Assembly: GCA_007378985.1 (NCBI GenBank)
Contig: VMHB01000001.1
Location: 192,252 to 256,251 of the forward strand
Source of the DNA: Parcubacteria group bacterium Greene0714_7
Lineage (GTDB): Bacteria; Patescibacteriota; Minisyncoccia; Phycocordibacterales; Phycocordibacteraceae
DNA: 64,000 bases
Direction of reading: 5' to 3'
A program made the position numbers and the translations under genes. Below, in pieces: positions 2,896 through 45,173 of the stretch. Below the pieces are notes generated by a model, which saw only the letters and a list, made by a program, of their open reading frames with translations, searched no databases and was not told the origin of the DNA. Within the stretch, counting starts at the first letter, position 1. Every line of letters begins with the position of its first letter.

Positions 2896-4362
2896 ATGCT
2901 GGGATTTTTGAAAAAATCGACTGAACGATTACCTCTCTTTCTCTACAACACACTCTCTAAAACAAAAGAGGAATTTAAGACAATAAGTGGCAAAAAGGTA
3001 AAGATGTATACCTGTGGTCCCACGGTGTATGACTATGCACATATTGGAAATCTACGTGCCTACGTATTTGCTGATACGCTTCGGCGAACACTTGAATACG
3101 CTGGTCTCTCAGTGAAGCAGGTGATTAACATCACTGATGTTGGGCATCTGGCGCAGGATTCCGATGATGGAGAAGATAAGATGACCAATGCATTGAAGCG
3201 TGAAGGCAAAGAACTCACCATTCCGAACATGAAGCTTTTAGGAGAAAGCTACACTTCGCTTTTTATAGAAGACTTGAAGGCGCTCAATGTTGAAATGCCA
3301 TTCGTATTTCCACGAGCTACCGCACATATTCACGAGCAAATTGCATTTATTTCTTCGCTCTTTCAGAAAGGATATGCGTATAAAACCTCAGACGGCATAT
3401 ATTTTGATACAGCCAAGTTTCCGTCCTATGGTGCACTCGGTGTGTCTGACGGAGGACAGGCTTTGCCTTCTTTAGGTCAAGCACGCATAGTGGCAAACCC
3501 CGAAAAGCACGACCAGCGAGACTTCGCACTTTGGAAGTTTGATAGCTCTCTTGGTTTCGAAGCGCCGTGGGGAAAAGGGTTCCCCGGGTGGCACATTGAA
3601 TGTACTGCCATGGCAACCAAGTATCTTGGAAAAAGTTTTGATATACATACTGGTGGCGTTGATCACATTGCCATTCATCACAATAATGAAATTGCACAAG
3701 CAGAAGCAGTGTCGGGTAAAAGATTCGTGAACTATTGGATGCACGGGGAATTTATTACCATTGAAGGAAAACGCATTGGAAAGTCAGAAGGAAATGCGAT
3801 TCGCTTATATCAACTTCGTGAACGTAATGTAAGTCCAACTGCATATAGGTATTTATTGCTCACTGCTCATTACCGTTCGCTTTTGAATTTCACATGGGAA
3901 GCTGTACTTGGAGCGCAAACTGCACTTCAGAGGGCTCAACGCATGTTTGCGGATTTTCCAGCGGGTGGACATATTGCAACTCTCTATCGCACAAAGTTTG
4001 GGACGGCGATTAATGATGATTTGAATATACCAATCGCAATTGCGGTGATGTGGGAGCTTTTGAAAGATGATTCGGTTACACCTGCCGATAAGCGGGCGAC
4101 AATTCTCGATTTTGATCGTGTATTTGGGTTAGGCTTTGGTACAGGATCGCTTTCTGAGAGCTCTAAAGTTTCGGTCACTGCGTTATCTGATGTACCGACG
4201 GAGGTAGCGTCTTTGGTTAAAGAGCGTGAAGAGGCCAGGGGATCTAAGGATTGGGCACGCGCTGATGCACTAAGGCTTTCCATTGAAGAGCAAGGGTTTA
4301 CAGTTGAAGATGCCCCAGAAGGGCCGATCGTGCATAAAACGTCCGAAGGGTTTAAGGGATAG
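2896..4362 (+). CDS. cysS: Cysteinyl-tRNA synthetase
   Basis: Class I aaRS motifs: CGPTVYDYAHIGNLRAY (HIGH region) and a KMSKS-like GKSEGN. 488 aa is typical of CysRS. Confidence 0.9.
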   Translation: MLGFLKKSTERLPLFLYNTLSKTKEEFKTISGKKVKMYTCGPTVYDYAHIGNLRAYVFADTLRRTLEYAGLSVKQVINITDVGHLAQDSDDGEDKMTNALKREGKELTIPNMKLLGESYTSLFIEDLKALNVEMPFVFPRATAHIHEQIAFISSLFQKGYAYKTSDGIYFDTAKFPSYGALGVSDGGQALPSLGQARIVANPEKHDQRDFALWKFDSSLGFEAPWGKGFPGWHIECTAMATKYLGKSFDIHTGGVDHIAIHHNNEIAQAEAVSGKRFVNYWMHGEFITIEGKRIGKSEGNAIRLYQLRERNVSPTAYRYLLLTAHYRSLLNFTWEAVLGAQTALQRAQRMFADFPAGGHIATLYRTKFGTAINDDLNIPIAIAVMWELLKDDSVTPADKRATILDFDRVFGLGFGTGSLSESSKVSVTALSDVPTEVASLVKEREEARGSKDWARADALRLSIEEQGFTVEDAPEGPIVHKTSEGFKG

Positions 4363-4465
4363 TAGGTAGCCGCACAGGTGTTGAATTTTGTAGTTTTTTC
4401 CCTAAAACCTAGTCCCTAGCACCTACCTCTGTGGTATCCTGTTTTTATTAACTAAGCATTTTTTT

Positions 4466-4993: not shown

Positions 4994-6235
4994 GTGGTAA
5001 TGTCTGTAGGTCCTTTCTCGTTTAAGATAGAGCACGCGCTTCGAATTGGAGCGCGTGTTGGCATTGTAGAGACTCCCCATGGTTCGTTTGAAACTCCTGC
5101 GTTTGTGGTGGTGGGGACAAAAGCAACAGTGAAATCTGTGTTGCCTGATGATTTGCGTATGCATGCCGGTGTGGATGTTGCTCTTGCAAACACGTATCAT
5201 CTTTTTCTTCAGCCAGGCGAAGATATTGTAGCGTCCGCTGGAGGTCTGCATGCGTTTATGGGTTTCGATGGGCCACTCTTCACTGATTCGGGAGGGTTTC
5301 AAGTTTTTTCGTTGGGTGTAGGTTTTGGAAAAGGTGTTTCAAAACTTGTTCCACGTAAGGATGACGTGGAACCTACGAGCTCCCACATGCCGACAGTGTT
5401 TGATGAAGATGTTCGTTCACAACATGGGAAGCTGGCCATTGTTGATGATGAGGGAGTTTCCTTTACTTCCCACATTGATGGAACGCTCTATCGATTTACA
5501 CCTGAGCGATCAGTCGAAATTCAACACAAGCTCGGGGCTGATATCTTTTTTGCATTTGATGATTTTGTTTTACCGGACGCTCCTCGCGAAGAGCAAATAG
5601 CTTCAATGCGTCGAACGCATGCATGGGCAGAGCGATCTCTCGCGACGCATCGCGCAAATCTTGAAGCGAGAAAACGGCAAGCGATTTTTGGCATTGTGCA
5701 GGGTGGGCGATATGCTGATTTACGTGCAGAGAGTGCGAAGATAATTGGGGAAATGGAGTTTGACGGTTTTGGTATTGGTGGAACTTTTTCTAAGGCGGAT
5801 TTAGGAGAAACTCTTCGTGTTGCCATAGATAATCTTCCATTCCTAAAGCCCCGACATCTTTTGGGTATCGGAGAACCTGAGGATATTTTTGAAGCGGTGT
5901 CACAGGGTATAGATACTTTCGATTGTGTACAGCCAACACGGCTTGCACGAACTGGAATGATTTATACGGCTCGAGGCAAGGTTAATCTTTTGAATGAAAG
6001 ATACATTCGTGACTTCTCACTACTCGATGTAGAAACAGGAGGGTATGCTTCAGAGCACTTCTCAAAGGCGTATGTTGCACATCTCTTTCGTGCAAAAGAA
6101 ATGCTTGGCGCTACAATAGCCTCAATTCATAATTTATATTTTCTCACTTCTTTGATGAAAAATATCCGCAATTCAATCCTTGAAGATAGGTTTGATGCCT
6201 TTCGAGAAGATTTTCTAAAAAAATATCTGGCGTAA
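4994..6235 (+). CDS. tgt: Queuine tRNA-ribosyltransferase (tRNA-guanine transglycosylase)
   Basis: TGT motifs (FETPAFVVVGTKATVK, DSGGFQVFSLG) and a zinc-binding C-terminal region. GTG start at 4994, or ATG at 5000. Confidence 0.85.
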   Translation: MVMSVGPFSFKIEHALRIGARVGIVETPHGSFETPAFVVVGTKATVKSVLPDDLRMHAGVDVALANTYHLFLQPGEDIVASAGGLHAFMGFDGPLFTDSGGFQVFSLGVGFGKGVSKLVPRKDDVEPTSSHMPTVFDEDVRSQHGKLAIVDDEGVSFTSHIDGTLYRFTPERSVEIQHKLGADIFFAFDDFVLPDAPREEQIASMRRTHAWAERSLATHRANLEARKRQAIFGIVQGGRYADLRAESAKIIGEMEFDGFGIGGTFSKADLGETLRVAIDNLPFLKPRHLLGIGEPEDIFEAVSQGIDTFDCVQPTRLARTGMIYTARGKVNLLNERYIRDFSLLDVETGGYASEHFSKAYVAHLFRAKEMLGATIASIHNLYFLTSLMKNIRNSILEDRFDAFREDFLKKYLA

Positions 6236-6318
6236 TTTCTAAATTTCTACTCCTCTCGAATTTCTAACTCTTAGAAAGAACTGTGTGAGAAAATTTTTCC
6301 GCAATACCTTTATAAACT

Positions 6319-6360
6319 CATCCTCTAAACACTATCATATATGATAGTGTTTAGAGGATG
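6319..6360. promoter_or_regulatory. Perfect 42-bp palindrome overlapping the yerC-like start codon (putative operator)
   Basis: catcctctaaacactatcatatatgatagtgtttagaggatg is perfectly self-complementary. The ATG at 6358 lies inside its right arm. Confidence 0.6.
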
Positions 6361-6786
6361 AAGGTTAAACCAAAAAAACTCACAAAAGATCAAATTATTG
6401 AAACTCTTGATGCTTTATATACAGCGGCAGGGTCACTACGAGGGCGTGCCACTATGAAATTATTTCTTCGCGATCTTCTGACCGAAGGAGAGAGGGTGAT
6501 GCTTGGTAGACGCATTCTGATTGCAAGACATCTTTTACGGGGTGAAAGCTATATCAGTATTCAACGTACTCTTGGCACAAGTCCTGTAACAATACGAAAT
6601 GTAGAGAAATGGTTAGACGATCAAATGCCGGGGTACGAGACAGCGATTAAGGGTATGCAAGCAACTTTTGCAAAGCGAAAACAAAAAAGCGCATCCATTG
6701 GCACATTTGCTTACTTAAAGAAGCGTTACCCGTTGCACTTTCTCCTCTTTCCGTGGCCAAAAGGGTATCGTACGGAAGATCAGTAA
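6358..6786 (+). CDS. TrpR-like DNA-binding protein, YerC/YecD family
   Basis: 142 aa. Shares a signature with the paralog at 52390-52830 (LYTAAGS.RGR.TMKLFLRDLLTE.ER.MLGRRI.IAR.L…KRKYPLHFLLFP). Confidence 0.8.
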   Translation: MKVKPKKLTKDQIIETLDALYTAAGSLRGRATMKLFLRDLLTEGERVMLGRRILIARHLLRGESYISIQRTLGTSPVTIRNVEKWLDDQMPGYETAIKGMQATFAKRKQKSASIGTFAYLKKRYPLHFLLFPWPKGYRTEDQ

Positions 6787-6793
6787 TATAAAC

Positions 6794-6813
6794 CACTATC
6801 ATATATGATAGTG
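6794..6813. promoter_or_regulatory. Second copy of the CACTATCATATATGATAGTG palindrome, immediately downstream of the yerC-like gene and upstream of rarA
   Basis: Perfect 20-bp palindrome identical to the core of the 6319-6360 site. Confidence 0.55.
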
Positions 6814-6846
6814 ATAATGAACACAGAGTAGAAGTTTGTTAAGTAT

Positions 6847-8022
6847 GTGGAAGGGGTGTATGTGTCGCACATAAAAGATACAATGATACACATGGAACCT
6901 TTGGCAGCAAAAATCAGACCAAAAAATCTTGATGAATTCATTGGGCAGGAGCATTTAGTAGGAGCTGGAAAACCTTTCCGTGTTGCCATAGAAGGTAAAC
7001 ACCGATTTTCTTTTGTGCTCTGGGGACCACCAGGGGTAGGAAAGACAACTTTGGCACGCATTTATGCAGACTCATTAGACGCTACTTTTTTTGAACTTTC
7101 GGCTGTTGCGGTTGGAAAAGAAGATATTAGGAAAGTAATAGCTACTGACACAGGCGGAAAACCAAAAGTTTTATTTCTTGACGAGATTCATAGATTTAAT
7201 AAAGCTCAGCAAGATTTTCTTCTTCCTTTTGTAGAGAAAGGCGACCTAACATTAATTGGAGCAACTACTGAAAATCCTAGTTTTGAAGTTATTCCTGCTC
7301 TTTTGTCTCGCGCTCGGGTATTTGTATTGCAGTCCATATCGGCAGAAAATATGGAAAAGATAATTGGGCGCACTGGCATGAAGATTGATTCAGAAGCGAT
7401 TGAGTGGGTCGTTGCCTATGCGAACGGTGATGCTCGAGCTGGAATCACTATAATTGAGAATGCTGAGCGTTTGTATGGAGAGGTAACTCAAAAGACACTA
7501 CAAGAATCACTCCAATCAGGGCGTCTTCGTTATGACAAAAAAGGTGAGGAGCACTACGATACTATTTCCGCATTTATAAAAAGTATGCGCGCAAGTCAGC
7601 CTGACGCCGCGATGTATTATCTTGCCCGTATGCTTGAAGGTGGAGAAGATCCCGTGTTCATTGCACGGCGTATGGTGATTTTTGCAAGTGAGGATATCGG
7701 GCTCGCACAGCCAACAGCACTAGTGGTAGCAAATGCGGTGTTTGATGCTGTTCGCTCAATAGGAATGCCTGAGGCTGGAATAAATCTTGCTCATGGTGTT
7801 GCCTATCTCTCGAACTCAAAAAAAGACCGATCAGCCTATGATGCACTCCGAGGAGCTCAGGCGGATGTTCAGACAACAGGTAATCTGCCTATCCCTATGA
7901 ATGTGCGTAATGCACCAACAAAGCTTATGAAGGAGTTGGGATACGGCAAGGATTATACAAAATATGACACAGAGAGTTATTTGCCTGAAAAGTTAAAAAA
8001 GAAGAAATATTTTGATTCTTGA
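6847..8022 (+). CDS. rarA: Replication-associated recombination protein A (AAA+ ATPase)
   Basis: Walker [13 protein letters not shown], the AAA+ region and the MgsA/RarA C-terminal domain. The true start may be a few codons downstream. Confidence 0.85.
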
Positions 8023-8150: not shown

Positions 8151-8392
8151 CGGAGGGGTTTTTAAAAATAAATATCATGAGTATAGATAATGGGGAGAGG
8201 AGTCATCGCAGATTTTTAGGTTCACGACAGCATGTTGAACGCAAAACTGTACATCCTGGATGTTTTTGTCAAATGAAACTTTCATCTGAAAATTCTACCC
8301 CTACGCATAAGCGTTATGTGTGTATTTTTGAAGGATGTAATGAGGGTAGGTGGGAGCGGAAAATATAATTTTGAGTTTTTTGTTATAGTGCC

Positions 8393-8500
8393 ATGATGAG
8401 CGGATTTAAACTTAAATCAGAATATAGTCCTGCAGGGGACCCCAGTACCAGACGCTCTTGCGTCGGTACGGGGCAGGTCATCCTTCATATAAAAACATGA
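8393..8500 (+). CDS. Upstream ORF (35 codons) whose first 16 codons mimic the uvrB N-terminus. Its TGA stop overlaps the uvrB ATG (ATGA).
   Basis: uORF MMSGFKLKSEYSPAGD… vs UvrB MSGFNLKSDYKPAGD…: 9 synonymous and 3 non-synonymous codon differences. It contains the conserved 38-nt element. Confidence 0.45.
   Translation: MMSGFKLKSEYSPAGDPSTRRSCVGTGQVILHIKT
8440..8477 (+). repeat. Conserved 38-nt start-proximal element (CCCCAGT-N21-ACGGGGCAGG), copy 1 of 3
   Basis: ccccagtaccagacgctcttgcgtcggtacggggcagg. Strong hairpin potential (CCCAGTACC/GGTACGGG outer, GACGC/GCGTC inner). Confidence 0.65.
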
Positions 8501-10581
8501 GTGGTTTTAATCTCAAATCTGACTACAAACCAGCTGGCGATCAACCGCGAGCCATCGAGGCGTTGGTTAAGGGTGTGAAAGACGGGGAGTCACATCAGAC
8601 ACTTCTTGGGGTTACCGGCTCGGGTAAAACATTCACTGTTGCAAATGTTATACAGCAGATTCAAAAGCCAACCTTAGTCATTGCACACAATAAAACACTC
8701 GCAGCGCAACTTACACAAGAGTATCGAGAATTTTTCCCTGAAAATGCGGTGCACTATTTTGTTTCTTACTACGACTACTATCAGCCAGAGGCATACATGC
8801 CGATGACTGATACCTACATTGAAAAAGAGGCTCAAATTAACGCTGAAATTGATCGTTTGCGCCATGCTTCTACTCAGGCACTTTTAACTCGGAGTGATGT
8901 CATTATTGTGGCATCCGTTTCCGCTATCTACGGTCTTGGTTCTCCTGAGCAATATAAAAGAGTCCATAGGAATATTAGGGTGGGTGAAAAATTCGAGCGT
9001 GCAGAATTTGTACGTGCTCTCATTGGGCTCCAGTTTGAGCGTACAAACGCCGACTTAACTCCGGGGACATTTAGAGCGGTAGGTGCGAACGTTGAGCTTA
9101 TGCCAGTCAATGAAGTAGCGGTGTACCGTATTCATCCAGAGCAAGGAAGAATCGCACACATTAGTAAGCTCAATGCTGTTTCCCGGGCTCTTGTTGACGA
9201 GCCAAAAGAATTTTTTCTTTTTCCTGCAAAACATTATGTTACCGATGAAGCTGATAGAGGAAGGGCGGTAGCAGATATACAAAAAGAACTTGATGTTCGT
9301 TTGGTCCAGCTTGAAGCTGAAGGAAAAATGCTGGAGGCAGAACGCCTGCGGAGGCGTACTCGCTACGACCTCGCCCTCATTCGTGAAATTGGATACTGCA
9401 ACGGCATTGAAAATTATTCTCGCCACTTTGATGGACGCAAAGCTGGAGAGCCTCCGTATACGCTTCTTTCGTATTTTCCACACAAAGCAGATGGAACGCC
9501 AGATTTCCTTACGGTCATTGATGAGTCACACGTCACTATTCCTCAGCTCCGTGCCATGTATGCAGGAGACCAGTCACGAAAAAAGATGCTGGTTGATTAC
9601 GGGTTTCGTTTGCCATCTGCTGCGGACAATCGCCCTTTAACATTTGCGGAATTTGAGAAAAGAGTTGGAGAAAAAGTGTATACCAGTGCAACGCCAGGAG
9701 TGTATGAGTTTGAGCATTCGGGTACACCAATCGAGCAAGTCATTCGACCTACGGGACTCATTGACCCTGAAATAATAATTCGCCCCGTAACGGGCACCAG
9801 TTCATCGAGTAGTCAGGTAGTTGATTTCATACAGGAGACCGTCTCGGTAGTAAAAGGAGGAGGGCGAGTGCTTGTCACTACACTGACGAAGAAGATGGCG
9901 GAAGACTTGTCGGAATTCTTAAAAGAAAAAAATATAAAAGCTGAGTATATTCATAGTGATATTAAAACGATTGACCGCATTACTATTCTCACTGAATTTC
10001 GCAAAGGGACCTTTGATTGCTTGGTTGGTGTGAACCTACTTCGTGAAGGGCTCGACCTACCTGAAGTTGAGCTTGTGGGAATACTTGATGCCGATAAGGA
10101 GGGATTTCTTCGCTCCGATACATCACTCATTCAGACTATTGGTCGCGCAGCTCGAAATGTTAATGGTCGGGTTATTCTCTATGCCGATGGAATGACTGGC
10201 TCTATGGAGCGTGCCATTGGAGAGACTAATCGTAGGCGTGCGGTACAGCTTGCCTACAATACAAAGCACGGCATCACACCAAAAACCATTCATAAGAACA
10301 TTAAAGACATTACGGAAACACTGCAATCAGAGAGAGCTGCGGCTATTACTATGCTTTTGGCAGTTGATGAGGATCGTACGCATGATCCTAAAGCCTTGAA
10401 GGCTCTTATTAGCGAGAAACGCCAGCAAATGGAAGATGCGGTTGAGGTTCTTGATTTTGAGACTGCCGCACTGCTGCGAGATGAGGTCTATAAACTTGAA
10501 GAAAAACTACCCGTGCCGAAAAAGCCTAAGCGTAAACCCAAATGGCCCAAGAAAGGTATGGTAATTGATTTAGAAGATTAG
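8497..10581 (+). CDS. uvrB: Excinuclease ABC subunit B
   Basis: Helicase motifs (GVTGSGKTF), the beta-hairpin region and a C-terminal UVR domain, with a Lys/Pro-rich tail. The six-frame ORF starts at 8458 in the same frame, but homology begins at MSGFNL (8497). Confidence 0.9.
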   Translation: MSGFNLKSDYKPAGDQPRAIEALVKGVKDGESHQTLLGVTGSGKTFTVANVIQQIQKPTLVIAHNKTLAAQLTQEYREFFPENAVHYFVSYYDYYQPEAYMPMTDTYIEKEAQINAEIDRLRHASTQALLTRSDVIIVASVSAIYGLGSPEQYKRVHRNIRVGEKFERAEFVRALIGLQFERTNADLTPGTFRAVGANVELMPVNEVAVYRIHPEQGRIAHISKLNAVSRALVDEPKEFFLFPAKHYVTDEADRGRAVADIQKELDVRLVQLEAEGKMLEAERLRRRTRYDLALIREIGYCNGIENYSRHFDGRKAGEPPYTLLSYFPHKADGTPDFLTVIDESHVTIPQLRAMYAGDQSRKKMLVDYGFRLPSAADNRPLTFAEFEKRVGEKVYTSATPGVYEFEHSGTPIEQVIRPTGLIDPEIIIRPVTGTSSSSSQVVDFIQETVSVVKGGGRVLVTTLTKKMAEDLSEFLKEKNIKAEYIHSDIKTIDRITILTEFRKGTFDCLVGVNLLREGLDLPEVELVGILDADKEGFLRSDTSLIQTIGRAARNVNGRVILYADGMTGSMERAIGETNRRRAVQLAYNTKHGITPKTIHKNIKDITETLQSERAAAITMLLAVDEDRTHDPKALKALISEKRQQMEDAVEVLDFETAALLRDEVYKLEEKLPVPKKPKRKPKWPKKGMVIDLED

Positions 10582-26580: not shown

Positions 26581-26707
26581 GCTATAGATTAGTGTATAGC
26601 GTTTAGTGGTTAGGGGAATTCAATTCAAGAAAACTAAACCCTAAACGCTAGACCCTAAACCCTATTTAAGCTAGCCCCGAGAGGTTCGAAGTGTTAAAGT
26701 ATTTGCG

Positions 26708-27460
26708 ATGGAATCTAAAATTCATATCTCGCTGAAAGCGGATTCGTTTGGAACTTTGTGGGGTATGCCCATCACGAGCAGTCTGCTTATGACATGGCTG
26801 GCAATGGGAATTCTCTTCCTTTTCGTGTTTCTGTTTAGGCGCTCCATTGCACTCATACCGGGAAAGCTGCAAGCAATGCTTGAGTGGGCTATTGAAGGCG
26901 CCCTGTCGTACATGACCGAGACCCTTGAGGATGCGAAGCTTGCTCGACGTTTTTTCCCACTCATAGCAACGCTCTTTCTCTTTATTCTGACTATCAACGA
27001 ACTCGCGTTCTTCCCTGGTGTAGGAAGCGTAGGGTTCTTTACTGAGCACGGATTCGCGCCACTACTCCGCCCTTCAACTGCCGACCTCAATACAACGCTC
27101 GCTCTTACCCTCATCTCAGTTATTATTGTTGAAATCACCGGTGTGGTAGCGTTGGGATTTTTCCGTTATACAGGGAAATTCATAAATTTCTCGTCACCAC
27201 TTAATTTTGTTGTTGGTTTAATTGAGTTAGTGAGCGAACTGGGACGCTTGGTATCGTTGTCGTTTCGTCTTTTCGGTAACATATTTGCGGGTGAGGTTTT
27301 GATCGCGGTGATTGCGCTGTTCGTGCCGTATATTATGCCTATCCCATTTATGCTCTTCGAAATTTTTGTTGGCTTTGTTCAAGCTGTTATTTTCTCTCTA
27401 CTGACTTTGTTTTTCATCAAACTTGCGGTTACGCCTCCTCATGCGAGCGAAGCTCATTAA
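26708..27460 (+). CDS. atpB: F0F1 ATP synthase subunit a
   Basis: Subunit-a signature LSFRLFGNIFAGE with the essential Arg, and multiple TM helices. Confidence 0.9.
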   Translation: MESKIHISLKADSFGTLWGMPITSSLLMTWLAMGILFLFVFLFRRSIALIPGKLQAMLEWAIEGALSYMTETLEDAKLARRFFPLIATLFLFILTINELAFFPGVGSVGFFTEHGFAPLLRPSTADLNTTLALTLISVIIVEITGVVALGFFRYTGKFINFSSPLNFVVGLIELVSELGRLVSLSFRLFGNIFAGEVLIAVIALFVPYIMPIPFMLFEIFVGFVQAVIFSLLTLFFIKLAVTPPHASEAH

Positions 27461-27568
27461 AACTGAGGAAAAACAGCCTCAATTGCTAGCCTAGTGAGGG
27501 GAAATTGGTGTATACTAGCGAGGTAATTATCAAGCCGTAAGGCATTATTTTGTATTAATTAACTATAT

Positions 27569-27774
27569 ATGGACATTGATTCTGCAAAACTGATTGGTAT
27601 GGCACTCGCCGCAGGTTTGGGTGTGCTTGGACCTGGTATTGGTATTGGTCTTATTGGAGGACGAGCCCTGATGCATCAGGCAAGATTATTCCAAACATGA
27701 TCCTTGCTATTGTTTTCACCGAAGCCTTGGGTATTCTCGCTTTGGTTGTGGCCTTTATCATCAAGTTCGTCTAA
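27569..27774 (+). CDS. atpE: F0F1 ATP synthase subunit c, reading frame interrupted by an apparent 1-nt frameshift
   Basis: N-terminal helix MDIDSAKLIGMALAAGLGVLGPGIGIGLIGGRAL is in one frame (stop at 27698-27700). The C-terminal helix GKIIPNMILAIVFTEALGILALVVAFIIKFV with the conserved Glu is in the -1 frame. The shift maps near the CCC run at 27666-27668. Confidence 0.6.
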
Positions 27775-27802
27775 TTGAGTTGATTTAGAAGGAATCTAAA
27801 AT

Positions 27803-28249
27803 ATGGGAGAGCTATTTGCTACATTCGGTCTTGATGTACGACTGCTTGGTATACAGGCAGTCAACTTTGGGATTACACTCGTTGTACTCTGGTACTTTTT
27901 GTATCGACCACTTCTTCGCATAATTAGCGAGCGAAAAGAGAAGATTGCGAAAGGTGTCCGTGATGCCGAAGCAGCAGCTCTCGCTGTTACAGAAATTGAA
28001 GAAAAGCGCACTTCAATGCTTTCTGCCACAGAGCGTGAGGCACAAGGCTTGGTTGAGCGTGCAACTCTCGAAGGTAAGGATGAGCGTGCAAAAATCATAA
28101 AAACTGCACAAGAAAGAAGCGACGCAATACTTGCCGATGCTAAAGCGGAGGCTGTGGAAATGCAACGCCGTGCTCTTGCTGAGTCTGAAAAGGAAATGAC
28201 TCGTTTGGCAGTGCTTGCTGCAGAAAAAATTCTTCGAAAACAATCATAA
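27803..28249 (+). CDS. atpF: F0F1 ATP synthase subunit b
   Basis: N-terminal TM helix followed by a long charged helix, in operon position. Confidence 0.85.
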   Translation: MGELFATFGLDVRLLGIQAVNFGITLVVLWYFLYRPLLRIISERKEKIAKGVRDAEAAALAVTEIEEKRTSMLSATEREAQGLVERATLEGKDERAKIIKTAQERSDAILADAKAEAVEMQRRALAESEKEMTRLAVLAAEKILRKQS

Positions 28250-28255
28250 ACCACC

Positions 28256-28639
28256 ATGTCACTTGCTAATGCCTATGCTTCAGTTATCAATGAAACTCCA
28301 CAAGAGCTTCAAAATGCTGATTTTACTCTGAAGTTGCTTGCGTTTATGCGTGCACGAGGACATATGTCACTTCTTTCTGAGATTGTGCAAATACTGGAAA
28401 ATAAACCAAAAGAGGCTGACGCAGTAGTGACTGTCGCTCACGGGGCAGATTTGAAAGAATTTGCATCTGAAATAAAATCCGCTCTCTCTACATTAGGGGC
28501 GGATGCAAAAATACACCGCACCATCGTTGATGCTCGTGCTGTGGGTGGCTATTCAGTGCGTGCAGGTTCTCAGATAATTGATAACACTTTCAGAACAGCG
28601 CTTGTCGACATTTATCAAAAAACGGTAGGTAGTAGATAA
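28256..28639 (+). CDS. atpH: F0F1 ATP synthase subunit delta (OSCP), short form
   Basis: Position between atpF and atpA. 127 aa, shorter than the typical ~180. Confidence 0.65.
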   Translation: MSLANAYASVINETPQELQNADFTLKLLAFMRARGHMSLLSEIVQILENKPKEADAVVTVAHGADLKEFASEIKSALSTLGADAKIHRTIVDARAVGGYSVRAGSQIIDNTFRTALVDIYQKTVGSR

Positions 28640-28714
28640 TCGGTAGCGCACTTTAAGCTCGTTACTTACCATTTACTACGTACTTTAAACTTGTTACTAA
28701 CTTACTAATCTCAT

Positions 28715-30274
28715 ATGGACATCAGCATCATTGAACGCCTCAAGAAAGAAATTGAATCCTTTGCACCAAATGCAAAACCAACTGAAACGGGCATCGTGCG
28801 CAAGGTGGGTGATGGCATTGTTGAGATAGAAGGTTTGGATGAAGTGTCGATGGCCGAGATGGTTCGTTTTGACGAGGGTTCGGTATCTGATGTGAAAGCA
28901 ACTATTGCACATGAGGATACACTCTATGGTGTTGTATTGAACTTGGAAGAGAATACCGTAAAGGCAATCATCCTCGGGGATTCGTCACGCATTAAAGAGG
29001 GAATGCTTGTGCATCGCACAAAGAAACTTCTTTCAATTCCTGTAGGAGACGCGGTTATTGGTCGCATTGTTGATGCACTCGGAGTTCCTATAGATGGGAA
29101 AGGGCCAATCAAAGCAGATGCCACAAGTCCTATTGAGCGCGAAGCGTACGGCGTTATCGATAGAGGCCCAGTAAATGTACCAATGCACACCGGCATTAAA
29201 GCAATTGATTCATTAATTCCTATTGGTCGTGGACAGCGTGAACTCATCATTGGCGACAGAGGCACTGGTAAAACAACAGTTGCTATCGATGCAATTTTGA
29301 ACCAACTTAATGAACCAAAGGAGACACGCCCTATTTGTGTATATGTTGCTATTGGTCAAAAAGAATCAAAGACTGCCCGCATTGCAGCGATGCTTAAAGA
29401 GCGCGGTGCGATGGATTACACCATTGTGGTATCGGCTCCAGCATCAGCTTCAGCAGCATTCCAATTCTTGGCACCGTACGCTGGCGTAACTTTGGGTGAG
29501 TATTTCATGGACAAAGGCAGAGATGTTTTGGTTATCTACGATGATCTTTCCAAGCAAGCTGTTGCGTACCGACAACTTTCGCTCCTCCTTCGTCGTCCCC
29601 CTGGACGCGAGGCATATCCTGGAGACATTTTCTATCTCCACTCAAGACTTTTGGAACGAGCCGCAAAACTTTCTCCTGAAAAAGGAGGAGGCTCTCTTAC
29701 GGCGCTTCCTATTATTGAAACGCAAGAAGGCGACATCTCGGCGTACATTCCAACCAATGTTATTTCCATTACTGACGGTCAAATGTTCCTCGAGGCTGAT
29801 CTCTTCAATAAAGGAACACGCCCTGCAATCAATGTAGGTATTTCAGTTTCTCGTGTCGGTTCTGCCGCTCAAACAAAAGCTATGAAGAAGGTGTCGGGAC
29901 GCATCAAGCTCGACCTCGCACAGTTCCGTGAACTTGAAGCATTCATGCAATTCTCACAAGATCTCGATGCTGAAACGAAGAAGACCATTGATGGAGGTCG
30001 TCGTCTTTCGGCAATTCTGAACCAAAACAAAAACGCCCCAATTCCATTTGAGCGACAGGTTGTTGTTATGTATGCAGTCACTAACGGCTTCTTCGATACA
30101 TTTGGTGCTGAACAGATGAGTGAAATAGAAGCAAAGTTCCTCGCGTATTTGGATAGGGAAGCTAAAGGCGTTCTTGACGCTATTCGTACATCAAAAGAAA
30201 TAGCTAAAGACACGGAGGAGAAACTTAAGACTGCCATTCAGTCGTTTGTTTCAACTGTAGATGTGAAAAGCTAA
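28715..30274 (+). CDS. atpA: F0F1 ATP synthase subunit alpha
   Basis: Walker A GDRGTGKT and overall highly conserved alpha sequence. Confidence 0.95.
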   Translation: MDISIIERLKKEIESFAPNAKPTETGIVRKVGDGIVEIEGLDEVSMAEMVRFDEGSVSDVKATIAHEDTLYGVVLNLEENTVKAIILGDSSRIKEGMLVHRTKKLLSIPVGDAVIGRIVDALGVPIDGKGPIKADATSPIEREAYGVIDRGPVNVPMHTGIKAIDSLIPIGRGQRELIIGDRGTGKTTVAIDAILNQLNEPKETRPICVYVAIGQKESKTARIAAMLKERGAMDYTIVVSAPASASAAFQFLAPYAGVTLGEYFMDKGRDVLVIYDDLSKQAVAYRQLSLLLRRPPGREAYPGDIFYLHSRLLERAAKLSPEKGGGSLTALPIIETQEGDISAYIPTNVISITDGQMFLEADLFNKGTRPAINVGISVSRVGSAAQTKAMKKVSGRIKLDLAQFRELEAFMQFSQDLDAETKKTIDGGRRLSAILNQNKNAPIPFERQVVVMYAVTNGFFDTFGAEQMSEIEAKFLAYLDREAKGVLDAIRTSKEIAKDTEEKLKTAIQSFVSTVDVKS

Positions 30275-30308
30275 AACCTGATACCTGAAAGTTGACACCT
30301 AAAACCCC

Positions 30309-30413
30309 ATGTCTCTCAAAGATATCAAACTCAAAATAAAATCTGTTGACCCCAGTCGTAGAGCTGGAACAGCTCACAACGGGGCAGGCCGTACTCACAT
30401 ACTATGTCGTTAA
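30309..30413 (+). CDS. Upstream ORF (34 codons) whose first 14 codons are a synonymously recoded copy of the atpG N-terminus. Its stop lies 3 codons inside atpG.
   Basis: MSLKDIKLKIKSVD (identical peptide to AtpG 1-14, 9/42 nt differ) then PSRRAGTAHNGAGRTHILCR. Contains the conserved element. Confidence 0.45.
   Translation: MSLKDIKLKIKSVDPSRRAGTAHNGAGRTHILCR
30350..30388 (+). repeat. Conserved 39-nt start-proximal element (CCCCAGT-N22-ACGGGGCAGG), copy 2 of 3
   Basis: ccccagtcgtagagctggaacagctcacaacggggcagg with an internal GAGCTG/CAGCTC hairpin. Confidence 0.65.
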
Positions 30414-31321
30414 AGGATATTAAATTGAAAATAAAGTCCGTGGACAGAACACGGAAAGTTACGAAGGCAATGGAATCTGTTTCTGCGGTGAAGATGCGCA
30501 AAAGTCAGATACGCGCAATTACCTCGAGGCCCTACGCTTCTTCCGCGCTCTCCATTCTGGAGCGCATGAGTGTTTCTCTCGCGTCTCTTAAACATCCGTT
30601 AACTGTTGTGCGACCTGTCAAAAAAGCAGCAATAGTTGTGGTTACCAGCGACAAGGGACTCTGCGGCATATTAAATGCAGCTGTTGTGAAATCTGCCTAC
30701 ACTCTTGCAGAATCATTGGAACTCCCTCGTGAAGCAATTTCTATCTACGCTTTTGGACGCAAAGGGGCTGAGTTTTTTGATCGCCGTGGATATCAAATTT
30801 TAGGAAAGTTTGAAAACGTTTCTGACGATGTTTCTGTTGCTGACCTAGCTCTTGTCTCAAATGATATCGCCCGTGCATTTCTAAATAAAGAATTTGACCG
30901 TGTTGATGTTGTATATACCAACTTTAAATCTACGTTTGAGCAAAGTGCTATTGCCCATAAAGTACTTCCACTCTCCATTGAAACAGTATCTGAAATAGTG
31001 AGCGGTATTGTGCCAGTAAAAGGAAAGTTTGCTGTGGTAGAGCGAGTGAAAGGTCCTGCATCATACACGGCAGAGCCATCTACTGAAGTTGTCGTAGACG
31101 CCCTCATTCCACGCCTTGTCAGTGTACTTTTCTTCCACGCACTTTTGGAGTCAAAAGCGTCAGAGCATTCAGCTCGTATGGTTGCCATGAAGAATGCGTC
31201 AGATAAATCTCGAGATCTTTCTAAGCTACTGACAAGAAAATACAACAAAGCTCGTCAGGCGCTTATTACCAGAGAAGTTTCCGAGATTGTTGGAGGTATC
31301 GAGGCCATGGCAACGAGTTAG
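30404..31321 (+). CDS. atpG: F0F1 ATP synthase subunit gamma
   Basis: Gamma N- and C-terminal coiled-coil helices (…ARMVAMKNASD…ITREVSEIVGG). Confidence 0.9.
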   Translation: MSLKDIKLKIKSVDRTRKVTKAMESVSAVKMRKSQIRAITSRPYASSALSILERMSVSLASLKHPLTVVRPVKKAAIVVVTSDKGLCGILNAAVVKSAYTLAESLELPREAISIYAFGRKGAEFFDRRGYQILGKFENVSDDVSVADLALVSNDIARAFLNKEFDRVDVVYTNFKSTFEQSAIAHKVLPLSIETVSEIVSGIVPVKGKFAVVERVKGPASYTAEPSTEVVVDALIPRLVSVLFFHALLESKASEHSARMVAMKNASDKSRDLSKLLTRKYNKARQALITREVSEIVGGIEAMATS

Positions 31322-31354
31322 AAAGAATAGAAGAATTAAGGTAAAATCAAAAAC

Positions 31355-31530
31355 ATGACACTTCTAGCTGAAAGAGTACATAGAAAAAATTCTGACAAAG
31401 GATTGAAAACAGTGGTGGAAACTGACGGAGTTCGAAAAAGTTCGTGGCGTCTTACTGAGGCTGAGCAGGCTATCTTAAGGGTATTAAATGGCGAGGCAAC
31501 TGTAGGGCCTGTTTGGGATATAAAATAAAA
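31355..31530 (+). CDS. Hypothetical 58-aa protein inserted between atpG and atpD
   Basis: ORF MTLLAERVHRKNSDKGLKTVVETDGVRKSSWRLTEAEQAILRVLNGEATVGPVWDIK. Not in the supplied ORF track, which has a 60-aa cutoff. Confidence 0.3.
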
Positions 31531-31532
31531 AT

Positions 31533-31724
31533 ATGGCATCACCAGAAAGAAAGGGAAGATTAGACATTAGTGAGGTTCCATTTCGTGGGCGCCTTGCTTC
31601 CGCTGGTGGTTTTGATGGGAGAGGTCGAGGTGGCGGAGGTAGACTTGAGGATGAGAAATTTAGACCTCGCCTCCTTCAAGGAGGATTAAGTTCATCTTCA
31701 GATCCGGAAAATCAAAAAGAATAA
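31533..31724 (+). CDS. Hypothetical Gly/Arg-rich 63-aa protein inserted between atpG and atpD
   Basis: Low-complexity RGRGGGGR segment. Could be non-coding. Confidence 0.25.
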   Translation: MASPERKGRLDISEVPFRGRLASAGGFDGRGRGGGGRLEDEKFRPRLLQGGLSSSSDPENQKE

Positions 31725-31770
31725 AAGAAATTAATATATTAAAAGTTGCAACCTATAACCTGACACCTAA

Positions 31771-33156
<1,386 letters not shown>

Positions 33157-33316
33157 CTTCCTATGGCTTTACTCAATCAGGCAGAAAGTTTGCGGGCTCC
33201 TCAAAAGCACACGGGGGGTGGTAACTGGCTAGAGGCATATCTAAATATGTTGTTTAAGGTGTCAGGACCGATGATGGATTTTCTCTTACTAACTACTCCA
33301 AAAAAGAATTAGGCTT

Positions 33317-42617: not shown

Positions 42618-42653
42618 CTTTCAGCTTGGAGTTTTCAGTCGTATAATCCCTAC

Positions 42654-42755
42654 ATGGGAAGTTACGACCGCCCCAGTACCACCGGGCTCCGCATGGCTAC
42701 GGGGCAGGAAGTGGTTCGATATATAATCGTGTTTTTGACATTTTCAGTACCCTAA
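42654..42755 (+). CDS. Upstream ORF (33 codons) beginning MGSYDR, a recoded copy of the LeuS N-terminus MQSYDH. Its stop is 6 nt before the leuS ATG.
   Basis: Ser encoded AGT vs TCA (a codon-family switch) and Tyr-Asp identical. Contains the conserved element. Confidence 0.4.
   Translation: MGSYDRPSTTGLRMATGQEVVRYIIVFLTFSVP
42671..42708 (+). repeat. Conserved 38-nt start-proximal element (CCCCAGT-N21-ACGGGGCAGG), copy 3 of 3
   Basis: ccccagtaccaccgggctccgcatggctacggggcagg. Its first 10 nt are identical to copy 1. Confidence 0.65.
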
Positions 42756-42761
42756 ATCTGC

Positions 42762-45173
42762 ATGCAATCATACGACCACAAAAAAATAGAGAAAAAATGG
42801 CGAAAGCTTTGGGAAGAGTCAGGTATTTACAAGACTAGTGAAAATTCATCAAAGCCAAAGCACTATGTTCTGGACATGTTTCCGTACCCATCGGCGTTAG
42901 GTCTTCACACTGGTCATGTTGAAGGGTATGCGGCGACCGATATTTACAGTCGTTTTAAACGAATGAAGGGGTTCAGTGTGCTCCATCCTATGGGATGGGA
43001 TGCGTTCGGTCTCCCTGCAGAAAACTATGCAATAAAAACAAATACGCCACCTCGAGAAACTACAAATAAGGCAATTGATAACTTCCGCAATCAAATCCAA
43101 CGCTTAGGCCTTTCGTATGACTGGTCACGAGAAATAGGCACTCACAATCCTGACTATTATAAGTGGACACAGTGGTTGTTTTTGTTCTTGTTTGAAAATG
43201 GTCTTGCGGAAAAACGCATGGGTAAGGTGAATTGGTGTCCCACCGACCAAACAGTGCTCGCCAATGAACAAACAGTGAGTGAGAGTGGAGAAAAGGGTGT
43301 GTGTGTTCGTTGCGGTACAAAAATAATTCAACGCGAACTTTCACAGTGGTTTTTCAAAATTACTGATTTTGCTGATGTATTAATTGATGATTTGAATGGT
43401 GTTGATTGGCCAGAGTCTACAAAAATAAATCAACGAAATTGGATTGGTAGAAAAGAAGGAGTCATTGTTACTCATAAAGTGAAAGGGCTGGATGTATCGC
43501 TCGACACGTTTAGTGCCTATCCTGCATGGCTTTTTGCGGATACCTATATGGTACTTGCTCCTGAGCACCCAATAGTAAAAACTCTTGTGGAAGGTACTGA
43601 AGTACAAAAGAGTGTTGAGGATTTTGTGAAGTGTATGCAGGAGGTCACAACGATTGATCGCACAAACGCAACAACGGAGAAAGAGGGTATTTTTACAGGA
43701 CGCTTCGCTATTGACTCTCTCTCCGGTAAAGAATTTCCTATTTGGATTGCTAACTTTGCTTTGATGGATTTTGGAACAGGTATTATTCGTTGCTCTTCAC
43801 ACGATATCCGCGACCTTACATTTGCTAAAAAATACGGAATCCCTTTGAGTGAGGTAGTCGAGAGAGAAAGTCCTGATATGCCCGTTGATGCCCATGCTAA
43901 TAAGGGTGTTTTGAAAGACTCGGGTCCGTTCACTGGTCGCACTATTAATAATGAGTTAATTCAAGAAATAATTGCGTGGATAGAAAGTAATGGATATGGG
44001 CATGCACAGACTACATACCGTCTTCGTGATTGGCTTATTTCTCGTCAACGATATTGGGGGGCGCCTATTCCAGTAGTGTATGACCCAGAAGGGAAAGCGC
44101 ATGGAGTTCCCAAAGAGCACTTGCCGTGGCTCCTTCCTGAAGATGTAGAGTATTTACCGAAGGGAACTTCACCGCTCGGAACCTCAAAGGAACTTTTGGA
44201 ACGAACAGAGAAAATATTTGGGAAAGGGTGGAAGCCAGAGATCGACACTATGGACACTTTCGTGTGTTCTTCGTGGTATTTTCTTCGATTTGCCGATCCA
44301 CATAATGAGATTGAGTTTGCGTCGAAAGAAGTAGTAAAAAAATGGCTTCCCGTTGACCTCTACATGGGAGGTGCTGAACATACAGTTTTGCATCTTATGT
44401 ACGCCCGCTTTATTACCAAGGCCCTGCAGAAGTTTGGATACATAGAGTTTGGTGAGCCATTCTCCAAGCTCCGTCACCAAGGGATGATTCTTGCTGAAGA
44501 TGGAACCAAGATGTCTAAGTCGAAAGGTAATGTCATAAACCCTGACGAAATTAGTGAACTCTACGGTGCGGACACGCTACGAATTTATGAAATGTTCATG
44601 GGTCCTCTTGAAGCTATGAAGCCATGGAGCACCAAAAATATTATTGGCTCACGGAGATTTTTGGAGCGTGTCTGGAGGGTACAAGAAAAGGTGAGTCAAG
44701 GTGCAACTTTGAGTGCAAGCGCTGATGCCACTCTACAGCAAACAATTAAAAAAGTAGCTGAAGATATCGAGCTCCTTAGTTTAAACACGGCAGTGAGTCA
44801 GATGATGATTTGTGTTAATGCTTTTGAAAAAGAAGAAAAAATACCTGCTGAAAGCTATGAGAGCATGCTGTTGGTACTTGCCCCGTTTGCACCTCATATG
44901 ACAGAAGAATTATGGGAAACTTTGGGTCATACTTCTTCAATTCATCAAGAAAATTGGCCAGTGTTTGATGAAAGTAAGCTCGAAAAAAATGAAGTAGTAA
45001 TGGCTGTTCAGGTTGGTGGGAAAGTAAAGGGCACCATTGTCATTCCTCGCGGAGCTACAGAAGAAGAAGTAATTGAGTTAGTACGAAAAGACGTCAAACT
45101 TGGTGGGGTAGTTCCTCAAAACCCATCCCGCATGATATTCGTTCCCAATAGGGTCGTTAACTTCATACCCTAG
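42762..45173 (+). CDS. leuS: Leucyl-tRNA synthetase
   Basis: HIGH region (LGLHTGHVEGY), KMSKS and the CP1 editing and anticodon-binding domains. 803 aa. Confidence 0.95.
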   Translation: MQSYDHKKIEKKWRKLWEESGIYKTSENSSKPKHYVLDMFPYPSALGLHTGHVEGYAATDIYSRFKRMKGFSVLHPMGWDAFGLPAENYAIKTNTPPRETTNKAIDNFRNQIQRLGLSYDWSREIGTHNPDYYKWTQWLFLFLFENGLAEKRMGKVNWCPTDQTVLANEQTVSESGEKGVCVRCGTKIIQRELSQWFFKITDFADVLIDDLNGVDWPESTKINQRNWIGRKEGVIVTHKVKGLDVSLDTFSAYPAWLFADTYMVLAPEHPIVKTLVEGTEVQKSVEDFVKCMQEVTTIDRTNATTEKEGIFTGRFAIDSLSGKEFPIWIANFALMDFGTGIIRCSSHDIRDLTFAKKYGIPLSEVVERESPDMPVDAHANKGVLKDSGPFTGRTINNELIQEIIAWIESNGYGHAQTTYRLRDWLISRQRYWGAPIPVVYDPEGKAHGVPKEHLPWLLPEDVEYLPKGTSPLGTSKELLERTEKIFGKGWKPEIDTMDTFVCSSWYFLRFADPHNEIEFASKEVVKKWLPVDLYMGGAEHTVLHLMYARFITKALQKFGYIEFGEPFSKLRHQGMILAEDGTKMSKSKGNVINPDEISELYGADTLRIYEMFMGPLEAMKPWSTKNIIGSRRFLERVWRVQEKVSQGATLSASADATLQQTIKKVAEDIELLSLNTAVSQMMICVNAFEKEEKIPAESYESMLLVLAPFAPHMTEELWETLGHTSSIHQENWPVFDESKLEKNEVVMAVQVGGKVKGTIVIPRGATEEEVIELVRKDVKLGGVVPQNPSRMIFVPNRVVNFIP

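Follow-up and report, generated by a model that had tools for sequence, protein, structure and literature searches.

The leucyl-tRNA synthetase gene (leuS) of Parcubacteria group bacterium Greene0714_7 is preceded by a short upstream open reading frame (uORF) whose first codons resemble those of the gene itself, which raises the question of which of the two starts is the original and how the other came to be there. We examined this locus within a contiguous stretch of 64,000 nucleotides (nt) of contig VMHB01000001.1 (assembly GCA_007378985.1, positions 192,252 to 256,251), referred to below as the window. A hairpin element lies between the two starts, and two further copies of it are found at uvrB and atpG. 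A preliminary reading of the sequence (the original prediction) had described the upstream copy as a mimic of the N terminus, arising from a duplication of N-terminal codons tied to a repeated element common to leuS, uvrB and atpG. Every feature that it listed at leuS was recovered in place, and the tie between duplication and element holds. The mimic does not: judged by comparison with relatives, the upstream MGSYD copy is the native leuS start, and the MQSYDH start now in use is the newcomer. We consider it likely that a mobile hairpin displaced the native start and that the replacement 5′ end probably came from a diverged allele. The features of the leuS locus are as follows.

42642..42647, + strand: native −10 box of leuS, TATAAT, 6 nt 5′ of the original ATG, in a leaderless-type promoter context
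42654..42670, + strand: leuS start fossil, ATG GGA AGT TAC GAC CG (MGSYD plus 2 nt of codon 6)
42654..42755, + strand: uORF of 33 codons (MGSYDRPSTTGLRMATGQEVVRYIIVFLTFSVP), made up of the fossil start, read-through of the element and spacer, with its stop TAA at 42753-42755
42671..42708, + strand: element copy 3, CCCCAGTACCACCGGGCTCCGCATGGCTACGGGGCAGG, 38 nt, with the lower stem and bulged A5/A11 intact and the upper stem decayed
42709..42761, + strand: leuS spacer U′, 53 nt, from the element to the new start
42762..42854, + strand: leuS replacement 5′ end, ATG CAA TCA TAC GAC CAC (MQSYDH), a divergent patch reaching to about codon 31
42762..45173, + strand: leuS, leucyl-tRNA synthetase, 803 aa, 100% to Greene0714_7 LeuS, with Pfam tRNA-synt_1 domains

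Two element-free relatives, L128 (LeuS 94%) and L129 (83%), start leuS with ...gtcgtataatcccta[ct]ATGGG[TC]AGTTACGACCA[TC], which encodes MGSYDH; with the promoter included, the sequence is gtcgTATAATcccta[ct]ATG GG[TC] AGT TAC GAC CA[TC] and matches the upstream copy of the window. The upstream context gtcgTATAATccctaYATG is likewise present both in these relatives and at the upstream copy. Because element-free relatives share its TATAAT-N6-ATG context and its MGSYDH coding, the upstream copy is native. Measured against the functional start of L128 (ATGGGTAGTTACGACCA), the fossil differs at 2 of 17 nt and the start now used at 6 of 17. The element is missing from the orthologous leuS site of L128, L129 and L130.

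Several details of the locus have to be reread accordingly. The uORF does end 6 nt (atctgc) before the leuS ATG at 42762, as had been described, and Ser is indeed encoded by AGT in the uORF and by TCA in leuS, with TAC GAC kept. The two-step switch in place that had been proposed for this change is not needed, since the replacement 5′ end is an abruptly different patch between stretches of DNA nearly identical to those of relatives. The CGC that had seemed an extra codon is native codon 6, one change away from the CAT/CAC His codon of the relatives, and nothing was added. The Asp codon GAC at the junction is not a codon feature: the CCCC of the element follows the A at which it inserted, so that GA plus C reads GAC. 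MGSYDR and MQSYDH share four of six residues (M, S, Y and D), one fewer than had been counted. Similarity of this type exceeds chance. When peptides from upstream ATGs were scored for matches to at least three of residues 2-6 among the window genes, p was ~0.0017 per upstream-ATG comparison, with ~0.1 matches expected in the whole window, and the only three genes that matched were the three with the element. Because orthologous loci show the native start upstream, we attribute the N-terminal similarity to homology and not to chance.

The divergent patch at leuS consists of the 53-nt spacer and the first ~93 nt of the gene. Relative to L128, nt 1-93 are identical at 11/18, 21/24 and 33/51 positions, and the sequence beyond at 141/147 (96%); a block at 42789 is identical to a relative at 39/60. 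The patch residues EESGIYK are like those of more distant LeuS lineages and unlike those of the nearest relatives. By local alignment, the 3′ part of spacer U′ (42741-42761) is a diverged homologue of the native leuS promoter and start region (TTTTCAGTACCCTA-AAT--CTGCATG versus native TTTTCAGT--CGTATAATCCCTACATG), and the first ~30 nt of the spacer hold TATATAAT. No sigma-70 consensus promoter was called in this spacer, and no continuation of the native gene is recognisable 3′ of the element, unlike at uvrB and atpG. Of the three cases in the window, that of leuS is the shortest and most decayed.

We further analyzed the structural features of the element. It has the form CCCCAGT-hairpin-ACGGGGCAGG, with the same ends at all three window sites, and comprises a lower stem closed by CCCC/GGGG, two bulged A's (A5 and A11), a freely varying upper stem and loop, and a 3′ CAGG tail. 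An alignment was built from 105 distinct copies of 32-53 nt, most of which come from Patescibacteria of groundwater. The outer pairs (CCCC/GGGG and GT/AC) and the two bulged A's show no variation across the 105 copies, but the outer-pair and CAGG columns were fixed by the search patterns and A11 by the metagenome pattern, so that the interior columns alone are informative. In the interior stem, 95% of cells are paired, with 216 double-sided changes, and the covariation score is 0.343, compared with 0.092 for shuffles and no more than 0.078 for slid controls. The multiple alignment suggested by the original prediction thus yields a middle that varies as a covarying helix between constrained ends, the end columns being those set by the search. 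A covariance model of the 105 copies has exactly three matches in the window, scoring 52.1 (atpG), 49.5 (uvrB) and 37.5 bits (leuS, E ~1e-9), and the next match scores 7.8 bits. With one mismatch allowed, the 11-mer TACGGGGCAGG occurs three times in the window versus 0.32 expected. The leuS copy shares CCCCAGTACC and TACGGGGCAGG with the uvrB copy at 8440-8477, and its middle is a poor hairpin, as had been noted (DNA fold −7.3 kcal/mol, z = −0.43); the uvrB copy folds at −14 kcal/mol (z = −5.9), and z is −3.2 for the atpG copy. Rfam returned no match at the element, either at gathering thresholds for the whole window or at E up to 10 for the uvrB copy.

The other two copies interrupt the first codons of uvrB and atpG, where the layout is as follows.

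8384-8389, + strand: native −10 of uvrB, TATAGT
8393..8439, + strand: uvrB start fossil, ATG ATG AGC ... GGG GA
8440..8477, + strand: element copy 1 (49.5 bits; z = −5.9)
8478..8550, + strand: uvrB after the element, with 7 native nt TCATCCT (8478-8484), a 12-nt spacer containing TATAAA, the new ATG at 8497 and 18 recoded codons
30309..30349, + strand: atpG start fossil, ATG TCT CTC ... GTT GA
30350..30388, + strand: element copy 2 (52.1 bits; z = −3.2)
30389..30454, + strand: atpG after the element, with 8 native nt CCGTACTC, a 7-nt spacer, the new ATG at 30404 and 17 codons

UvrB of the window, like LeuS, is 100% identical to that of Greene0714_7. At uvrB, the relative L251 lacks the element, and its functional start (...tatagtgccATGGTGAGCGGATTTAAACTTAAATCAGAATATAGTTCTGCAGGAGATCAGCCTAAG) differs at only 4 of 51 nt from the fossil taken together with native bases 8478-8484. 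The patch differs from L251 at 19 of 54 nt and at five residues, and the next 30 of 30 nt are identical; over more than 1 kb on either side of the patch, the window and L251 are 97-100% identical. Because the flanks are near-identical to L251 yet the patch differs this much, it did not diverge in place. Its residues D9, K11, P12 and R18 are present in other lineages and not in the native type. At atpG, the fossil plus 8 native nt differs from the element-free L126 at 3 of 49 nt, and the 17 codons of the patch are all synonymous with the native ones although 13 of their 51 nt are changed (Leu CTC to TTA/TTG, Arg CGT to AGA). The native sequence continues 3′ of the element, matching at 6 of 7 nt at uvrB and 8 of 8 at atpG. 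Since the unconstrained fossils have stayed near the native type and the flanks are near-identical to relatives, we read both patches as different at birth, which gradual divergence in place cannot explain.

To judge from filled and empty sites, insertion is clean and without target duplication at atpG, uvrB, L019 and L080. The empty sites are GTTGA/CCGTACTC at atpG and GGAGA/TCAGCCT at uvrB (the slash marks the insertion point), and L019 and L080 are tRNA genes with an uninterrupted paralogue. The insertion target is an A (rarely G or T) before the element and a pyrimidine after it (A/Y). Three copies are present in the window. The syntenic DNA of relatives, 180 kb that covers the loci of all three genes, has none; the upstream uORF and element are both missing at leuS, uvrB and atpG of relatives with 79-97% protein identity. 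Among copies from Patescibacteria, 103 of 145 lie outside long open reading frames (ORFs), and copies also occur in Desulfobacterales, Cloacimonadota and Bacteroidota. In the primase gene dnaG of two Saccharibacteria (L023 3222-3262, − strand; L144 355-395, + strand), the element lies in frame at the same site and adds the identical peptide PSTTSPSGLATGQA between ...GFSGRIF and ARKES..., which looks like an old, tolerated and translated insertion. We class the element as a small non-autonomous mobile DNA palindrome; the family is absent from Rfam and appears to be new as a variant of small palindromic mobile elements.

Viral contigs were considered as a vector and ruled out by the few copies found: the 66 contigs carry one Patescibacteria-type and five Desulfobacterales-type structured copies, intergenic wherever inspected. 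Desulfobacterales are rich in a 33-nt sequence related to the element (CCCCAGTACGATCTGCCGGACCTACGGGGCAGGC; many loci, L006-L120). Copies are nested in L001 (Desulfobacteraceae; − strand, 168-224 in reverse coordinates), where left halves are repeated and repeats of CGGGGCAGG come after them, and several other copies have short flanking direct or inverted repeats.

The layout of the window loci, with a native 5′ fragment, then the hairpin and some further native bases, then a spacer (7-53 nt) that leads to an intact, often heavily recoded 5′ end, is repeated at some 15-20 other Patescibacteria loci, among them tRNA genes and two loci whose hairpins are different. A native continuation beyond the element is present at uvrB, atpG and most other loci examined (at L169, ATT GAT CAC, which encodes IDH). 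The element lies inside the first copy and therefore not between two target-site duplicates; a simple target-site-duplication model is ruled out by native sequence running 6-15 nt past the element before the second copy. In a metagenome scan, which yielded 120 further loci, an N-terminal duplicate (score at least 27) accompanied 17 of 67 sense copies beside a gene start, versus 2 of 55 antisense controls, neither of which was N-terminally aligned. The genes affected include metG-, alaS-, lepA-, typA- and miaB-like genes, GTPases, rplX, smpB and dnaE (the last three twice each), and uvrB of L211 also carries an insertion, at a site other than that of the window's uvrB. A long-lived, gene-specific homing cassette was rejected, the smpB and rplX copies being closer within a genome than between genomes and the uvrB sites being variable.

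In a scan of 1100 long ORFs for N-terminal duplicates, the element lay between the copies in six of the eight matches scoring above 40, and the two exceptions, L133 (another leuS) and L205, have different palindromic insertions; the fossil and replacement layout is not specific to one element family. At the leuS of L133 (~4284-4371), the fossil MSKYDHKKIE... and the working start MEKYNHSKIEKKW are separated by a different palindrome (CCCTCCTTCGTCCCGCTAAGCGGGACTTCGGAAGGG). L205 (~7830-8006) has an N-terminal duplicate with other hairpins.

The element also occurs, in either orientation, in the D- or T-loops of tRNA genes (L019 3273-3315, L080 3301-3339, L158 6912-6950, L189, L235 and L133 7551-7593). 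Four of these loci, L158, L189 (element on the − strand, at 8793 in reverse coordinates), L235 and L133, contain an incomplete tRNA fossil and, after it, a complete tRNA copy. At L158, the duplicate covers the 3′ half of tRNA-Ile with 40 of 40 nt identical, and the spacer that leads to the complete copy matches the tRNA leader in reverse complement, which is suggestive of strand switching; L189 is a tRNA-Phe. At L235, a tRNA-Thr, fossil and intact copy disagree at several 5′-strand positions of the acceptor and anticodon stems, for which the fossil has no matching 3′ strands. The presence of the same layout at tRNA genes argues against a function of the uORF at the peptide level. The layout is a general outcome of hairpin insertion at gene starts in these genomes, not a peptide device.

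As to how the two starts came about, we infer the following order of events. In the Greene0714_7 lineage, the element entered leuS (after codon 6), uvrB and atpG within their first codons and duplicated no target. The original promoter, ATG and N-terminal codons persist as a fossil, with 7-8 native nt past the element at uvrB and atpG, and are followed by an intact replacement end, in which a short spacer leads to a new ATG and to N-terminal codons joined in register to the old gene. This end was most likely copied or ligated from a diverged homologous allele, such as taken-up DNA of a related lineage, when the disrupted gene was repaired or replicated. It may have been acquired by template switching at the hairpin, through an unpaired 5′ flap of transforming DNA, or by insertion of the element into a displaced D-loop strand. 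Patescibacteria have been reported to be naturally competent, with genes for homologous recombination (PMC12455944). Compared with the window (26700-33200; 42762-45173), the genome GCA_040384205.1 (L124) has an AtpG that is 96% identical and a LeuS that is only 70% identical. This is mosaic exchange, which makes a foreign patch plausible, and the pattern would imply that the atp operon was recently exchanged between Paceibacteria lineages that are otherwise distant.

The patch differences look like divergence between functional alleles, with synonymous changes, codon-family switches, differences in tRNA stems, and spacers more diverged than coding sequence. Over 15 loci, 108 of 420 nt differ between the copies; 69 of these differences fall at third codon positions, and the changed codons are synonymous in 54 cases and non-synonymous in 26, a synonymous bias that is inflated by the choice of the metagenome loci for protein similarity of their copies (the window loci were found via the element). 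Adenine mutagenesis of the kind produced by diversity-generating retroelements, or a deaminase signature, is ruled out in the patches by a mixed spectrum of changes.

In addition to this selection effect, several observations weigh against a displaced start and a foreign patch. No donor allele matching any patch was found, and the uvrB start of L252, which differs at 8 of 54 nt from the patch and 7 of 51 from the fossil, does not lie nearer to the patch. The ends of patch and fossil at uvrB and atpG fall within one codon of each other, like a duplication unit and not a random recombination tract, and the leuS patch runs ~75 nt further, so that the geometry is not uniform. All three window copies lie at rescued essential genes and none is intergenic, which is unexpected if rescue were a rare second event. 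No Y1/HUH motif was detected in six-frame translations of ~320 loci or of the window, and no transposase emerged from a Pfam scan of the window ORFs or from clustering of ORFs near copies. Reinitiation from the fossil uORF, through which the displaced genes may be expressed (see below), is proposed from sequence only.

The three rescued window copies, for their part, argue that insertion and 5′-end replacement would be coupled rather than independent. We put forward, tentatively and with clearly less confidence than the displacement itself, that hairpin insertion at protein and tRNA gene starts is mechanistically coupled to capture of a 5′ segment from a diverged homologue in these competent, Shine-Dalgarno-less Patescibacteria. 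Such coupled capture might proceed by insertion into the displaced strand of a D-loop or by template switching at the hairpin, and would yield a stable module of fossil, hairpin and foreign start.

Among the alternatives, self-templated duplication survives best, although we regard it as unlikely. Here, hairpin insertion, or stalling with template switching, would have produced a tandem duplication, and the functional copy would then have rapidly diverged at synonymous positions, with divergence selected, for example, because it avoids loss through the repeats or improves initiation in its new context. The agreement of patch and fossil spans to within one codon at uvrB and atpG fits this, as do the near-identical copies at some loci (L158 with 40/40, L154 with 41/45, L218 and L073) and the L158 spacer, whose sequence looks like a copy of the tRNA leader's opposite strand, as template switching would give. 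However, point mutation, neutral or selected, cannot give the asymmetry of uvrB in so short a time, with 19 of 54 nt and five residues changed in the patch, 4 of 51 nt in an unconstrained fossil, and flanks 97-100% identical to L251. The changes of Ser AGT to TCA and Arg CGT to AGA need non-synonymous intermediates, the tRNA copies of L235 differ in the 5′ strands of their stems, and at L154 the non-coding spacer is more diverged than the coding part, as between orthologous alleles.

It is far less probable that the uORF is regulatory, a leader peptide mimicking the downstream N terminus with the hairpin as an attenuator or structure switch. The reading frame is open through the element and ends at or beside the gene ATG at all three window loci, and amino-acid identity is retained despite nucleotide change. 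Against this, the arrangement is missing at the orthologous loci of relatives with 79-97% protein identity, the upstream copy is the native start, tRNA genes with the same layout encode no peptide, the element has no Rfam match, and genes as unrelated as uvrB, atpG, leuS, rplX, smpB, dnaE and the GTPases rule out a gene-specific signal.

We give very little credence to translational bypass or RNA-level excision, in which the protein would be made from the upstream ATG by skipping from the codon before the element to an identical codon ending the second copy. The same codon does stand before the element and at the end of the duplicate at atpG (GAC...GAC), and a stable hairpin occupies the would-be take-off site, as in phage T4 gene 60. 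Bypass in gene 60 needs matched codons, a stop after take-off and a gap of ~50 nt; here, the codons are mismatched at uvrB (GAC/GAT) and leuS (CGC/CAC), no stop follows the take-off codon, and the gaps are 90-130 nt. Moreover, the element is read in frame as protein in dnaG and other ORFs, occurs in both orientations in ORFs and tRNA genes, and is followed in every case by a downstream copy with its own ATG.

A scar of a larger integrative element, such as an island or phage targeting gene 5′ ends whose interior was deleted to leave the hairpin, is just as improbable. Integrative elements in tRNA genes, icd and dusA restore their target with a diverged copy and leave a fossil, and a scar of this kind would explain the polarity of native versus diverged ends. 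Integrase or island remnants are missing, however; the hairpin is flanked by native sequence (8/8 nt at atpG, 6/7 at uvrB) and not by an att core, the sites differ within one gene between genomes (uvrB of the window versus L211), and more than 100 solitary copies are intergenic. Lastly, a chimeric assembly that joined two strain alleles in tandem, conceivable because the window comes from a metagenome-assembled genome, is highly implausible, since the layout recurs with precise element boundaries in ~20 assemblies made independently in different projects, since no assembler would create a conserved 38-nt hairpin at the joint, and since a 99%-identical AtpG of an independent assembly (P0010, 293 aa) is also annotated from the internal GTG, a probable sign of the same upstream structure.

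The displaced-start module can be compared with several known systems. REPs and REPINs are mobilised by RAYT transposases (Y1 HUH), whose gene is typically flanked by the repeats. Like them, the element is an imperfect palindrome of 30-45 nt with a conserved base and a variable top, multi-copy, mostly intergenic, now and then located within genes, and spread over several phyla. Most copies contain GTAG...CTAC, with GTAC in window copies 1 and 3, but this motif is paired with CTAC/GTAC in the stem, whereas the GTAG (or CGTC) end tag of REPs is unpaired; the conserved unpaired parts of the element are A5, A11 and the 3′ CAGG. No RAYT gene was found beside any copy, and no TnpA or TnpB in the DNA scanned. 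REPs inside uvrA and uvrB have been noted, with no associated duplication mentioned in the REP survey searched (PMC3733652).

The element also resembles hairpin miniature inverted-repeat transposable elements derived from IS200/IS605 (PATEs), which insert without target duplication 3′ of a fixed base and show strand or orientation effects and nested self-insertion (compare L001); its hairpin with extrahelical bases looks like a recognition feature. It differs in being a single hairpin without distinct left and right ends and in its target, only A/Y, which is weaker than the 4-5-nt targets of the family. Rickettsia palindromic elements are likewise tolerated in frame in essential protein genes, as in the dnaG case, but are 100-150 bp long and confined to Rickettsia; we know of no 5′-end duplication or fossil start associated with them. 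Target-restoring integrative elements (tRNA, icd, dusA) share the fossil native end and the diverged, mostly synonymous working end. The present module has no integrase or island, an insert of only 60-130 nt, a hairpin within native sequence, and sites that vary within a gene.

Homology-facilitated illegitimate recombination, or transformation with short fragments, is similar in having one side in register and the other illegitimate, with small duplications. Here, the joint lies 0-15 nt past the mobile hairpin wherever it can be placed, pointing to a role of the element outside the known process. Literature searches on the element sequence, on REP/RAYT in Patescibacteria and on N-terminal duplications returned only general REP biology and competence, and no description of a module of fossil, hairpin and replacement was found in the literature searched. 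A mechanism that couples insertion to 5′-end replacement appears to be undescribed.

The displaced genes have to be expressed from behind a uORF. A Shine-Dalgarno-like motif precedes 1 of 38 window genes, and a −10-like hexamer lies 3-10 nt before the ATG in 22 of 38 (e.g., TACAAT-7-ATG and TATAAT-6-ATG, at gene starts such as 14609, 24877, 18930 on the − strand and 59707), which suggests that transcripts are largely leaderless and begin at the ATG or close to it; the fossil ATG retains this promoter context. At 3 of 11 loci (uvrB, where the stop is TGA, L180 and L211), uORF stop and new ATG overlap as ATGA, and at most others, including leuS, the stop lies within ~10 nt of the ATG. At uvrB, the TATAAA of the spacer is 3 nt before the new ATG. 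Because Shine-Dalgarno sites are missing and promoters abut the ATG, expression is probably by termination and reinitiation from the fossil uORF, or from the −10 box in the spacer.

The uORF also bears on annotation. AtpG (window 30404-31321) is annotated (P0009) from an internal GTG, with 293 aa and not 305, probably because the uORF overlaps the true ATG. The AtpG homologues P0019, P0024, P0029, P0043 and P0060 are likewise shortened and might hide comparable insertions. In L121 (5093-5177; AtpG 90%), the 85-nt atpA-atpG spacer is filled by a different palindromic repeat (ATTCATGAAT motifs), with no recognisable fossil start. Elsewhere in the comparison with L251, identity drops to 58-64% at window positions 6200-6900, where an ORF of 142 aa (6358-6786) with a Trp-repressor-like domain is preceded by a perfect inverted repeat (cctctaaacactatcatatatgatagtgtttagagg); this segment may be a replaced or mobile small gene.

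These results explain uORFs that look like N-terminal mimics as displaced native gene starts and reverse the direction of inference between the two copies. Insertion into tRNA genes, or into essential genes within their first codons, has repeatedly been survived by means of a short replacement 5′ end, often that of another allele, which points to an undescribed coupling of small mobile elements with recombination or repair in ultra-small, competent bacteria. Gene-start annotation is affected, as in AtpG with its 12 missing residues, and the finding bears on how genes are expressed behind a uORF in leaderless genomes without Shine-Dalgarno sites. If true, coupled capture would be a new survival route for a selfish element in essential genes, and it would drive the transfer of very short allelic patches and create obligatory reinitiation uORFs.

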